This document shows positions 1 through 63,215 of a DNA stretch of 64,000 nucleotides, piece after piece. A program made the translations under genes and the position numbers. The notes below the pieces were generated by a model. It was not told the origin of the DNA. It saw only the letters and a program-made list of their open reading frames with translations, and did no database searches. The DNA comes from Eledone cirrhosa (taxonomy: Eukaryota). The stretch is taken from contig OZ024740.1 of the NCBI GenBank assembly GCA_964016885.1, forward strand, positions 331,452,001 through 331,516,000. Direction: 5' to 3'. Each line of letters begins with the position of its first letter. The stretch's first letter is position 1.

Positions 1-280
1 ATTGGTTGACGTAAGGAGTATTCAATACCAGTGTCGAGTATAACTATTCTTTATTGTATATAATTGGAAAGTTAGTCGTGTTACTCTGCTGTTTCAGAAT
101 CAACCAACCAACCAACCGGAAACGTATAATAAATTGAAATGAAACCTACAGGTGCGTGTGTCTTTATTGGAAGCATGTCCCTCCCAAAGTATAACAATAT
201 ATACATATATATATATATATACATATATATACACACACACATATATATATATATATATATATATATTTATTAAAATAACA

Positions 281-350
281 GATTAAAGTTTAAGCAAAGA
301 ATCGCTGCTTTCACCCTTAACGGGATCTTCTGAAACTAACAAAGTCAATC
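281..350 (-). ncRNA. Type I hammerhead, U4A core variant (family E)
   Basis: Minus strand reads GATTGA...AGTTT-CAGAAGA-TCCC-GTTAA-GGGT-GAA-AGCAG-CGATTCT-TTGCT-T-AAACT-TTAATC. Confidence 0.72.
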
Positions 351-980
351 TGTAAACGCAGAACTGGATATTTCAAAAAACGTTGCAACCGGAGGAAGAC
401 AGGAAGACGATATTTTGGTTTGTGGTAACGTTCGCTGGCAAAGAACGGGAAAAAACGAATAAACGTCATTAATAGGAGCGGTGAAAAACAATTACGTGCA
501 AAGACAGAACCACGTTTATGGTATAAAAGAGGTCGTAGACTAATGTTCTCTTAGGTGGTGCATAGAGACGTTCTCTGGCAATGAACGAAAACACGAAGAT
601 AATAAGTCATACGTGGAGCGTGGAGAACAATAGCACGCAAAGACAAAACCACGTAAATGGTATAGCAGAAGTTGTAGACTAAAATTCTAACTAGGAGACC
701 AAATGAATCTCCGCTACAGAGTTAAGAACAAAGTAAATAAATACAATACGGAAGTAATAGAAACAAATAAATACATACACGCAAACAGATACGTACATAC
801 ACAAGCATACGCAAACCCTTACCATAGATATACAAAACCAAGCACATATAAATATGTGTGTGTGTGTATGCTTGTGTACAAATAAATAAATAATTATATA
901 AACGTATATAAGTAAATAAATACGTATATAACAAGCGCAGACACATACCTACAAATAAATACACGAATGTTCGGAGACGT

Positions 981-1031
981 AGTTTCAGAAGATCCCGTTA
1001 AGGGTGAAAGCAGCGATTCTTTGCTTAAACT
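981..1031 (+). ncRNA. Type I hammerhead, U4A core variant (family E)
   Basis: Stem I AGTTT/AAACT, core CAGAAGA, stem II CCC/GGG, GAAA, stem III AGCAG/TTGCT, triplet CUU. Confidence 0.72.
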
Positions 1032-59400: not shown

Positions 59401-60229
59401 ATAGTTACACTCATATTGCTAGTTATTTAAGAAGTGCGCCAGCAGCCTAGACACCGTTGCATGAATGTTGGTAAAAACAATAAAGGTGATTTTATTTTGT
59501 GCAGTCATTTTAATTATAATGTAAAGTCTAAACCATGTCTGATATTTAGTAATTTAATATAAGCCGAAGGTTTTTTCCAATAAATTCAATGTAGATATTT
59601 CCTGCATTGCTTCTAAAATCGAAGTCTCATTTCTTATTATTCATTCACTCAATATGAATATCTTTAATGACACAAATATTTATTGTATCGTGATTTTATT
59701 GGCAAACATTAATTCTTTACTAATGTAAACAATAGTAAATGAAATATTTATCAATAAATCAATCTAGTAATAAGAAAACTATTCTCATGGAAACTATCTA
59801 TACGCAAATTTTAATATATATCGATGAAAATTATCAACTGGAAGAATTTTTGTTTTTCTTGAAAGCCAGCTGTATAAATTGAGAAATATTTGCTATTCTT
59901 AACAATCTCTTTAAATTGCCTTTGTCGATTGTAAATATAGGATATTTAAACCACTCATCTTTGGCCTATATAAAACAGTTTTATTTGAATTATTTTTCTA
60001 AGAAATTCGTTGTAATTATTTAATTTTCTATAACAATTTCATGCTTGTGAAGATTGTTATTACATTTCGGTTTTTGGACCTCGGGAAAAAAAGAGATTAA
60101 CTTAGTAGTAATATTGTTGAGTATGATTTAATGAGAGGATCTAATAAGACCAAAGTTGAGAATATTTGCATTGAGCTGTTATTACGCACAGCTATACTGC
60201 AGCTAGCGTAAAACTTTTAACATTCAATG

Positions 60230-60750
60230 GGCGACACAGACTGTTGTAAATAGATCATTCTAACATTATTCATTCTCCTCTACTGGGTCTCTTCTACAAT
60301 GTGGGCATGCTAGAAAGAACAGGCCTTAAACTCAGTAAGTTCGTGGCTAGAATATCATTAACCTGGAATGTACTTCAATAGAGTCCATGTGATGTTAAAC
60401 AATAAGTCAAACTTTAATATCTTCAACACAAATGTGGTATGAACCTGAAGAATATTGGGTGTCAAATCCACAGATGTTCTGTTTCTCAAATGGATCATTA
60501 TAGTGTTCTTTATTTAGAATTGTATTTAAGTCCTAACGATATTTGTTTCAATGGGTTTGCTCGGAGAAATATGTTGTGTCATAGACTTCACAGATATTCT
60601 GAGACCGGTGTGATAAGATGTGGTTGTTATTAAACATTTGTAAGTAGGTGGCAACAGGAGAGGCATAGGTAGGTAAGAAATTCCCCTGTGGTAACATCTA
60701 GAGAGGAGGCGTTAAAATATGTTTCATGTTAAGCCTATGCGGCACAATAG
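60230..60750 (-). pseudogene. Possible decayed LINE APE-endonuclease remnant
   Basis: Scattered resemblance only (EHLWI-like, DL-FT-like fragments). Confidence 0.25.
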
Positions 60751-62799
60751 AAAAGAAATAAAGACTGAATAGTTTCAATCTATGGAGGTGATACAGATCA
60801 ACAATTTCGCCAAAATATAAATAGAATGAACTGTAGTGGTTGTAGTAAAATCAGAGTTACGAGACACCGCATCTACAGTCTTGACTTCGAAGTTTCTTGA
60901 ATACGTTGCTTCATGCCAAAACATAGTAGAGATACTTAGACCATGTGGTCTACGATCTCGGTCTGCTAACTAGGAGCACGGTCTCAGATAAAGAGGAAGC
61001 AGTGTATCTTGGTTCTACATGAGTCTTGTAAAAGATTCGTTGTTGTAAAAGGTTCATCGTATTTAATGACCTCCAAGAAGTAAACGCTGTTTTTGTGATG
61101 CAGTATTTGCTACATCGAGGAGGTGACGTCTGCATATCGCTAGAAGAAAGCATTAGCATTCAGCACTCAGAATATCATGTGAAACAACTATTAACTTAAA
61201 CATGTGTTCATCTGAATATTTAATGTTTATTCATATGCCTCTACTTAGTTATAGCAGTTTCATGTACTTTTAGAAAATGGATATCAGTCTTAAAATATTT
61301 TCAAAGACATTGTTTCCTTGTCCACTTTACTGCTTATCATTCTCCCATATAATATTATAATCGTGATGGATATTGCCATAAATGTTCATAAACAGTAATC
61401 AAATTTACAATGTATATGTAAAATTACCTACTCATGATACTCATTCATTTTTCGTCTCTTACATTATACGTGTAGTGTCAAATATCTCAAGGAACGATGA
61501 TTTATTAGCTTTTCTACCCATACACGTAACTATCTACGAACATATTTGCATGTGAGCATTATTTCCATACAGTCCTGTTATCCACTGCTAAACATATTTA
61601 AAATGCATTTAATGATACGCGTACAACCACTCTGTAAAAACAAAAATATCTAAACGTTACATATTGCATAAGAAAAATTAAATTTATAAAAGACACACAC
61701 CTTCCATTCCACTATATTTATTCGGGAAATGTTCGTGTTTCATGGTTCGTATTATTAAACGGGTACAATGACTAGTTCAACTTCATACAGACAACCCATA
61801 ATTAAATTATATATCATCAGAGCGACTCTCCCATACTTTTAGTTGATTTCACATTATTTAAAAGTTGATGCTCTTTTGCAAAGCATGCATACATTATTGC
61901 ACACAACGAGTAATATATCACAATTATCCCTCGTTTCTCTTTCCTCGGCTATTACTATGAATTATTACATTATTCGCTGCTAAATCTGACACCCTCTACT
62001 TTATTTAAATTAAATTAAATACATTACTCTTTTAAAATCAGTAAGTAGATATTATTAATTCATGTGAACGTTTTTTCAGAATTCAGAATTTTGCTAGCAT
62101 ATGTTAACAATGTTTAAATTATAGCCCCAACACTTCGGGGGTTGTATATCTATATTGGCAGCAAAAGATATAAGGATAAGGTTTCTGATTCTGCATATAT
62201 CACAGACATAGTTTATTGATGTCACTTGAAGTTAATATTAATATTTCTATCAGAAATAGGTATTTTCCGGATCTCATATCTCTGTGGGCCTTATGTCTAT
62301 ATTTATTTGCTTCTCCACACTAATTATTTCGACATTGATTTTTAATTTATATCCATAAGGTCTTAGCACATTATCTCCTATGTAATCTATTATTTTAAAC
62401 TTTGTAACCAAAGGCAACAAGTAACTGGTAAACGAAATTTAAGCAAATTATTAAAGCTTATCTATAAATAGTTTTCTGAAAAATAAATTCTCTCAAACCA
62501 TATCAAACATCATGTTTTTCTGATCTTTTAAGTGCGGTTTTAGTATTCGTGAAAGGAATATTCTCTCGTTCTTCGTACAGCAAATTATCAACATTCTAAT
62601 GGCTGGAAAATGAAACTGCAGCTATTTAACACATAGCTCTGAGAATGGCTTTTTATAAGGAGCGCTTTATCGAGATACCAAAGAGCATTGTTTTACGATA
62701 CGTCCTCAAAGTAAAGACTTTGCTTCTGTCTGGTTTTCAATGCAGCCAATTAGGATGTAGCGGGTTTAGATGGAACCCATGACGCCTAAACCGTACGAA

Positions 62800-63215
62800 A
62801 TAAGTGACATTGTCACTATTTAAAACAATAGCGTATGGTCTTCAAAATGCTTTTAGTTAAGGAAACAGTGTATTGCAAAATACACTATATATACATTCAT
62901 ATATATATCGCTATTTCAGAGCATCAATTCTAATTTTCAATGTCTGCTGAACCGGCGACCGCTCTGTATAATCAGTTCTTATTATTACTGGAATTCTATA
63001 TGAATCCAACACACATAATTTTCAGCAAACAGGAGGAGTAGTGAACTTTGATAAGTACCAAAAAGTATGAAACAGAACTCTGTCAGTTTATCTCCCCCTG
63101 TTTGCTTAAAATTTAAATAAGTGACATTGTCACTATTTAAAACAATAGCGTATGACCTTCAAATGCTTTTAATTAAGCATACGGTGTATTGCAAAATACA
63201 CTATATATACATTTA
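62800..63215 (+). repeat. Second locus of the ~320-bp family I repeat (about 1.3 units) ending in (TA)n
   Basis: AAGTGACATTGTCACTATTTAAAACAATAGCG occurs at 62802 and 63119. Homologous to 28876-29290. Confidence 0.8.
63032..63095 (+). ncRNA. Type I hammerhead with U3-A8 core (family I)
   Basis: AACT-TTGATAA-GTAC-CAAAAA-GTAT-GAAAC-AGAACTCT-GTC-AGTT, with outer GGAG/CTCC pairing. Confidence 0.65.

Follow-up and report, generated by a model that had tools for sequence, protein, structure and literature searches.

Penelope-like elements with Hydra-clade features and their hammerhead-bearing passengers probably target existing (TA)n tracts across the genome of Eledone cirrhosa

3' ends in (TA)n tracts

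We analysed a 64-kb stretch of the 3.0-Gb genome of Eledone cirrhosa (assembly GCA_964016885.1, contig OZ024740.1, positions 331,452,001 to 331,516,000; hereafter the window), in which Penelope-like elements (PLEs) and hammerhead-bearing repeats lie among (TA)n tracts. The reading that we consider probable is that PLEs of the Hydra clade, together with non-autonomous passengers, place their 3' ends in (TA)n throughout this genome by nicking an existing tract and starting the copy at a short UA word. An initial annotation of the window had counted eight PLE coding loci from about seven families, and tblastn and profile searches of the window returned exactly eight loci and seven families (A to G), whose reverse transcriptase (RT) regions share 36-61% pairwise identity; families H and I have no open reading frame (ORF). 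The letters A-I are our reconstruction of the labels of that annotation (Table 1).

Nine DNA searches with window queries gave 250 loci (sampled loci carry L numbers), and 20 evenly chosen 10-kb stretches (200 kb) served as background. Leaving aside the 11 window copies and 11 read-through rows, two of which were the reference copies of G and I, 228 termini were counted. Under a strict rule, (TA)5 at the 3' junction, 189 of them lay at (TA)n, against 5.3% in the background, and under a looser rule 211/228 against 7.5%; the seven coding families alone accounted for 154/183 by the strict rule, and family A copies chosen by their ORF alone also adjoin TA at both ends. The claim that most ends abut (TA)n was therefore borne out both in the window and genome-wide, with an enrichment of about 15-fold over background. 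The idea of a local ecosystem did not survive: TA tract density is 1.94 per kb (5.3% of bases) in the window and 1.47 per kb (3.6%) in the background, and since the window is just 1.3-1.5 times TA-richer than the 20 evenly chosen stretches, what we observe is a genome-wide state. Pieces of the nine families were present in 10/20 background stretches. Coding copies are dense in the window, with eight in 64 kb against two in the 200 kb of background (tblastn).

Each family has two discrete 3' ends, one short and one tailed, about 50-160 bases apart and each on a short TA word. At 15 of the 16 ends with known read-through the element overlaps the TA target by at least 3 nucleotides (nt), compared with 16% expected (p ~1e-11), and because of this overlap we infer that pairing of a UA word may prime the start of reverse transcription. 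For the PLE PAc Poseidon, the available text of an in vitro study explains the tail by two internal RT start sites and describes an AT-rich target and a proposed insertion into the element's own pseudo-long terminal repeat (pLTR), all of which resemble the families studied here (PMC11167929). The two systems differ in that the PAc start site in vitro was not homologous to the cut DNA; in that assay the hammerhead was dispensable. The ends described here are new sequence evidence for tail start sites pairing with their target, against that one in vitro result. Our literature search, which covered few subscription journals, found no paper on microhomology at PLE start sites.

Some arrays next to element ends have a particular composition. 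In older families (CT)n runs stand between an element end in C and (TA)n, as at 5/14 G tail ends (L227, L229, L233, L235, L242); (CT)n growth was also seen at the D tract in L084, L088 and L099, but at 0/26 A and 0/26 F ends, and is likely a post-insertion microsatellite birth. Long periodic compound arrays ((TA)nCA, (TA)nTG) of at least 400 bp were found at 5/52 young A and F ends (L037, L059 and others) and in 1/156 background arrays.

Domain order and motifs of the coding families

Hydra-clade PLEs have been defined, in the available text of PMC8557442, by a C-terminal GIY-YIG endonuclease (EN), an RWK motif, DKT in place of DKG, a CxCX5C linker, CxxC and CxH motifs and the lack of CCHH, while the Naiads described there carry an N-terminal EN, a CxC domain and an insertion in the fingers domain (IFD), are without canonical hammerheads and are represented in cephalopods by remnants only. 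The Naiad label first given to these elements is wrong, because their domain order and motifs are those of the Hydra definition; canonical hammerheads in A, D and F also speak against it. The family A protein (829 amino acids, a single ORF) has an RT followed by GIY-YIG at about residues 710-810, with RWR at 38, DKA at 121 and CxCX5C, CxxC and CxH at 688, 786 and 814, and no CCHH (CC..H) pattern was found in it. The RT-then-EN order holds in all full-length families, including the likewise intact 813-amino-acid ORF of F; DKT occurs in B, C, D and E, and the cysteine motifs also in C, D, E and F and partly in G. RWR is a K-to-R variant of the Hydra RWK, with RW[KR] present in 113/120 homologues and the Hydra motifs in 113-119 of the 120, and an N-terminal Y[IV]G motif was found in 0/120 homologues and an N-terminal EN at none of the eight loci. 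Pfam matches to GIY-YIG were weak (C, E=0.013; D, E=0.0028), the RT of these PLEs was not recognised in the Pfam scan, and a PDB sequence search gave no match. A quick tree of 60 of the 120 homologues, built without named PLE references, joined the seven families in one branch (Shimodaira-Hasegawa-like approximate likelihood ratio test, SH-aLRT, 100) that also holds an Argonauta hians protein and five other sequences, amid homologues with Hydra motifs. By eye, the N-terminus of Hydra-1_Obim is collinear with A, and Naiad_Ovul, in the supplement of PMC8557442, starts with an EN, unlike A. Judged by their predicted proteins, the seven coding families are Hydra-clade PLEs.

Hydra PLEs that target TA and bear hammerheads are already published, octopus included: the supplement of PMC8557442, as far as it is available, lists the octopus element Hydra-1_Obim with a (TA)n preference and a hammerhead, and records (TA)n insertion for 26/27 Hydra families. 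The elements studied here share with them the C-terminal GIY-YIG, RW[KR], DKT, CxCX5C, CxxC and CxH around E and N, the lack of CCHH, a 3' type I hammerhead, (TA)n insertion, partial tandems, inverted arms and a tail at one end. They differ in unit length (4-7.4 kb, with long low-complexity 3' untranslated regions (UTRs), whereas Hydra elements are generally below 3 kb), in the microsatellite block carried by F, in their many young intact copies (A, F) and in non-canonical hammerhead cores in 5/9 families, the Hydra hammerheads in supplementary file S2 being all CTGANGA. With Naiads they have in common a PLE RT, a (TA)n bias, pLTRs and inverted structures, and differ from them in the N-terminal EN, CxC domain, IFD and missing canonical hammerhead of the latter. 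As for youth, family A has many near-intact genomic copies at 96-99% identity, all 41 matches listed to the 3' 271 bases of F are 100% identical, and the identical 813-amino-acid F ORF is intact in 5/20 sampled F regions. A recent octopus repeat annotation reports 31 active Penelope-like families, and the word Hydra is absent from its main text (PMC13282606, available part).

Predicted hammerhead ribozymes and their variant cores

The strict CTGA descriptor caught few hammerheads, so these were scored with alignments of 25-30 copies per family, a relaxed descriptor and core tallies; those of F and G, missed by the descriptor, were read by eye. All nine families have a predicted hammerhead fold, five of them with family-wide variant cores. 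In tallies biased toward the window query, the core is canonical in A (CTGATGA, 30/30), D (CTGATGA, 30/30), F (CTGAAGA, 30/30, with a stem II of about 105 nt) and H (CTGACGA, 24/25), of the U3-A8 type in B (TTGAAAA, 27/30), G (TTGATAA, 22/24, one copy unscored) and I (TTGATAA, 23/25), and otherwise altered in C (CCGAAGA, U4C, 19/25) and E (CAGAAGA, U4A, 30/30); E copies in the background stretches have the same U4A core. Eight of the families had been credited with a hammerhead from the start, correctly, and only the exclusion of B falls, its U3-A8 core being present in both pLTRs and in most copies. Window copies of C (also G8C), D (53357) and G have decayed hammerhead positions. Across 1.6 Mb of loci the relaxed descriptor returned 15 hammerhead clusters, of which one, within the A ORF, is a chance match; an Rfam scan of the window gave no hammerhead model among the best 150 of 297 matches, which were low-complexity microRNA-like noise only. 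Free minimum-free-energy folds of single copies seldom yield a hammerhead; the basis of the predicted folds is therefore stem logic together with conservation, and not energy.

The compensatory U3-A8 core has been described before, PLEs included (PMC4209133 and PMC3088659, available parts), and a U4C core is known from a viroid, in a source seen in excerpt. No report of U4A as a natural core was found in a literature search that did not extend to figure 5 and the supplements of PMC3088659. Ribozyme activity is predicted for the hammerheads described here. Family-wide variant cores in 5/9 families are new, and because of them the number of ribozymes in such genomes is likely underestimated by CUGANGA searches.

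ORF-less families H and I

The two ORF-less hammerhead repeat families proposed for the window proved to be just that, with no ORF attached upstream: pieces of ORFs lie near 3/25 H and 2/25 I loci, none contiguous upstream. Monomers measure about 420 nt in H and 305-318 nt in I and are accompanied by short tandems (6/25 H loci, 3/25 I loci) and inverted pairs. H and I gave no sequence match to the UTRs of the seven autonomous families; an apparent similarity of I to C was an artefact, since the C reference overlapped I. Animal non-LTR (long terminal repeat) retrozymes, according to the available parts of PMC7229834 and 10.64898/2026.07.22.740005, are likewise ORF-less type I hammerhead units of 300-420 nt in monomers and short tandems, the difference being that H and I have TA ends in the short and tailed pair of PLEs, inverted arms and (TA)n targeting. 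These three features point directly to PLE machinery, and H and I are likely non-autonomous hammerhead passengers of Hydra PLEs. Such retrozyme-like repeats with a full PLE insertion signature are new and support the proposed PLE-driven mobility.

TA tracts carried by the elements

The initial annotation also held that A, D, E and F carry TA-rich tracts in their own 3' UTR or pLTR. For A, D and F the tracts recur across copies, and they do so in H as well, so that internal tracts belong to the families and not just to this locus; in E, which was compared by position, a spacer is retained at this site in the copies that extend to it. The carried tract of A was intact in 36 instances (mostly 6-9 units, one of 40) and interrupted in one, the window copy, in a scan whose left anchor also matched F blocks (those rows were dropped). 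The two tracts of D were interrupted in 1/10 and 1/16 instances, by E at L084 and by F in the window, where F lies, as had been claimed, in an internal TA tract of D's pLTR. The tract of H was intact in 76/85 rows, some scored by eye, with a median of 6 units, and its hits comprise two PLE-type elements, one other repeat and a further case at L128. Most carried tracts of A, D and H have 4-9 units, and some seeds have expanded to 39-43 units. Family F carries a compound block of 1.4-2.7 kb, with 14-26 (TA)5+ tracts at matching positions in 25/25 segments; an exact 35-base anchor from it occurs 265 times in the genome (control 0), indicating at least 265 copies. Three independent insertions were seen in 49 distinct blocks (these 25 plus 24 new ones, the latter covered over 1.5 kb to either side of the anchor): a fragment of F, a short element of PLE type and a non-PLE piece of 620 bases. 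The nested F fragment sits in both arms of its F insertion, which suggests that the composite was copied as a unit. At L375 and L376, one inverted F pair is bordered on its two outer sides by copies of one sequence in inverted orientation. In a literature search covering few subscription journals, no description of a PLE with a TA target of its own came up.

The 3.4-kb insert of the upstream A copy does sit in A's internal TA tract, as first annotated, and is not a PLE, an identity ruled out by its TC...CTAG ends without duplication. It is flanked by A and T and has left the number of TA units unchanged (8 units empty, 4+4 filled), and a copy at L065 has the same ends, is 99% identical over both end parts and also lies in (TA)n. 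Helitrons begin with 5'-TC, end with CTRR-3', insert between A and T without duplication, usually have a GC-rich hairpin just before the 3' end and depend on a RepHel partner. The insert has a strong 5' hairpin, a weak 3' hairpin only and no long coding ORF, and from its ends and target site it is Helitron-like. Non-PLE elements therefore use the same targets.

How much do carried tracts contribute? Of 156 background TA arrays, examined by eye, about 21 touch ends of the nine families and about 25 more touch ends of other recurrent repeats, so that with at least 13% of sampled arrays in contact with them these families influence how microsatellites turn over, even if most arrays do not owe their origin to them. 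The share lying inside PLEs, the measure that had been proposed for the loop, is small: 4/156 in this sample, all H and none F, or 2.6% (95% interval 0.7-6.4%), a lower bound in that nine families were mapped and any tracts carried by unmapped or decayed ones escape the count. F blocks supply about 3,700-6,900 tracts against an estimated total of 4.4 million, or some 0.1%. Looking across the array from 206 ends, we found another family's 3' end in 19 cases, a truncated start in 6, a recurrent unmapped end in 41 and a carried tract in 2, with no preference for carried tracts as landing sites (2/206; Fisher p=0.33) and no significant enrichment of tail-to-tail neighbours over background (19/206 vs 18/312, p=0.16).

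Mechanism and rival explanations

We hypothesise that the GIY-YIG domain would nick both strands of a pre-existing TA tract and that the nicked end would pair with 2-6 nt of UA in a read-through RNA. With each insertion a single tract would become two, together longer by a few TA units, later elements would land in the halves, giving rise to tail-to-tail clusters, carried tracts, mostly those of F, would add perhaps 1-3% of landing sites, and the ORF-less H and I may use the same enzymes. Two young insertions with a known empty state are compatible with this: sister arms at L368 and L367 show 13 units becoming 10+10, and at L322 there are 10+10 units where two other copies have about 12-15, so that each of the two insertions gained about 5-8 units. 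It is likely that most new targets arise when tracts are split in this way, with a small duplication, and that a few percent come from carried tracts, nesting being mostly several elements sharing and splitting one tract. Several points weigh against this reading. The sampled copies are top matches to window queries, hence biased to close relatives, the background is limited to 200 kb, and many plain 5'-truncated ends have no TA (5' boundary calls being noisy owing to incomplete references); to these come the PAc start site and the lower-bound character of the carried share, and hits in young copies have had little time to accumulate, which bears on the few-percent estimate. One-sided arrays have medians of 59 bp in A and F and 38 bp in older families, near the 49 bp of a length-weighted split of background arrays and in that respect in favour of the reading, yet their lengths deviate from this model in both age groups and in opposite directions (p=0.02 and 0.0004). 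Filled H tracts are long (25+9; 28) against the empty median of 6 units, as would be expected either if long alleles are preferred or if TA units are added.

The feed-forward loop proposed at the outset, in which PLEs deliver their own targets, is right in kind: tracts are carried, are later hit, and in F a nested piece is found in both arms. Its weight was overestimated; the loop exists but is likely minor, because carried repeats are only a few percent of sampled TA repeats. That tracts in PLE UTRs would be the main source of targets and of genomic TA microsatellites we judge improbable. The bulk of tracts in the F blocks, the nested hits in F (3 events in 49 blocks), D (2), H (2-4) and A (1), the doubled F fragment and the occasional long seeds all favour it, whereas the carried share of background arrays, the two carried landing sites, the tiny F contribution and the shortness of most A, D and H tracts oppose it. 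Fainter still is the prospect that the telomerase-related RT makes (TA)n by stuttering on the UA word, the flanks being tails and not targets. Every mapped end lies on a TA word, many 5'-truncated ends have no TA, filled H tracts are rich in it and some young A and F ends bear the long compound arrays described above, as stuttering would have it; the two dated insertions gained only those few units, flank lengths are near the split model, and the Helitron-like element and other repeats also lie in (TA)n, which argues that tracts pre-exist as targets. The same unrelated insertions, together with microhomology at the ends and the fragility of TA arrays, lend something to passive capture, in which (TA)n would break by itself at cruciforms and PLE RNAs would be patched in by microhomology with little EN specificity. 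We hold this to be hardly likely, on a par with dominance of carried tracts, given the intact GIY-YIG domains of young A and F, a (TA)n preference throughout the Hydra clade and paired short and tailed ends that fit two-strand nick priming, as for the PLE in vitro (PMC11167929, available text).

Targeting of existing tracts by Hydra PLEs also allows a bolder extension, more plausible than these rivals and still doubtful: hammerhead PLEs and retrozymes might be what chiefly drives the millions of (TA)n arrays in this genome, priming at UA words, splitting and lengthening tracts, with F shipping dozens of targets and nested passengers and ribozymes working with U4A, U4C and U3-A8 cores that CUGANGA searches miss. 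MuTAnT is reportedly among the elements that seed or target microsatellites. Others that do so, including L1/Alu proto-microsatellites, Waldo, Kibi, Dong and Micron, are reviewed in the available part of PMC3812793; there, carrying and targeting are split among elements, whereas F does both with the same repeat. Because family F is intact, very young and a bulk carrier of its own target, it makes self-targeting measurable.

Feature map of the window and additional observations

Table 1. Mapped features of the window, with positions counted from its first base; A' is the upstream copy of family A
Feature	Position	Strand	Remarks
Family E 3' fragment	263..760	-	short end at (TA)13; core CAGAAGA (U4A) at 332
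Family E 3' fragment	980..1140	+	tail end; hammerhead core at 986
Family A upstream 5'-truncated copy (pLTR; A')	2385..9732	+	ORF remnant 2387-3670 (coding locus), 3' UTR, canonical hammerhead 9544-9589
Helitron-like non-coding insert	4550..7951	+	in carried TA tract of upstream A copy
Family A full unit	9733..14949	+	intact 829-aa RT + GIY-YIG ORF 9803-12292; 2.66-kb 3' UTR; carried tract 13153-13181; hammerhead 14759-14804; tail end at (TA)38
Family B	15026..18559	+	inverted arm and pLTR; frameshifted ORF 15532-17791; TA tract common to A and B; U3-A8 hammerheads, core TTGAAAA at 18410 (+) and 15305 (-)
Family H ORF-less retrozyme-like repeat	19134..20777	+	~420-nt monomer; tandem and inverted copies; short carried TA tract; cores CTGACGA at 19516, 19938, 20642 (-)
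Family E 3' fragment	21737..22150	-	hammerhead rearranged
Family C	24050..28696	+	pLTR-ORF-pLTR; broken ORF 24693-27145; cores at 24400, 28615
Family I ORF-less retrozyme-like repeat	28716..29291	+	inverted arm; canonical core CTGAGGA at 29124
Family E	32926..34894	+	inverted arm; EN remnant 33224-33802 (coding locus); CA/TA tract 34246-34351 in 3' UTR; U4A hammerhead 34747
Family G	34917..36316	-	EN remnant 35405-36313 (-; coding locus); U3-A8 hammerhead 35006; tail-to-tail with E across (TA)11
Family D	38079..43455	+	inverted arm, pLTR; canonical hammerhead 39876; broken ORF 40123-42317; 3' UTR up to F-hit tract
Family D pLTR carried tracts	38681-38729, 39165-39250
Family F	43456..52543	.	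two inverted arms; EN remnant 48016-48504 (-; coding locus); short end 43456, tail end 52543
Family F carried compound microsatellite blocks	44170-46710, 49160-51690
Family F hammerheads			~105-nt stem II; cores 43651 (-), 52211 (+)
Family D, rest of 3' pLTR past F insertion	52544..53456	+	decayed core 53357; short end at (TA)18
Family I partial tandem	62798..63213	+	U3-A8 core TTGATAA at 63048; short end at (TA)22

Beyond the nine families, a tenth short and very abundant PLE-type element left a fragment at 38017-38078, with 64 distinct matches in sampled loci, among them L091, where a fuller hammerhead has a U3-A8 core, and L367; the apex of the predicted hammerhead stem II is where its 5' ends and points of inversion concentrate. 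Two more hammerhead families lie at 37249-37927 (core 37498, minus strand) and 56791-56860 (core 56799, plus strand), the match of the latter adjoining EN-coding pieces at L340 and being inserted in an H tract at L005. At 20786-21689, adjoining the end of the H inverted arm, terminal inverted repeats of about 110 bases enclose decayed transposase-like frames with a weak helix-turn-helix match, likely a Tc1/mariner element, and positions 22253-23254 hold a 1-kb array of almost pure TA outside the mapped families. The A 3' UTR contains 195- and 80-base tandem duplications of variable copy number (8246-8712 and 13466-13932). A dispersed family of about 190 bases that resembles a short interspersed nuclear element occurs at 5543, 6380, 22145, 29805, 52609, 53760, 55830 and 58260, with about 100 matches in sampled loci, and is inserted in the A UTR at L048 and L079, outside TA.

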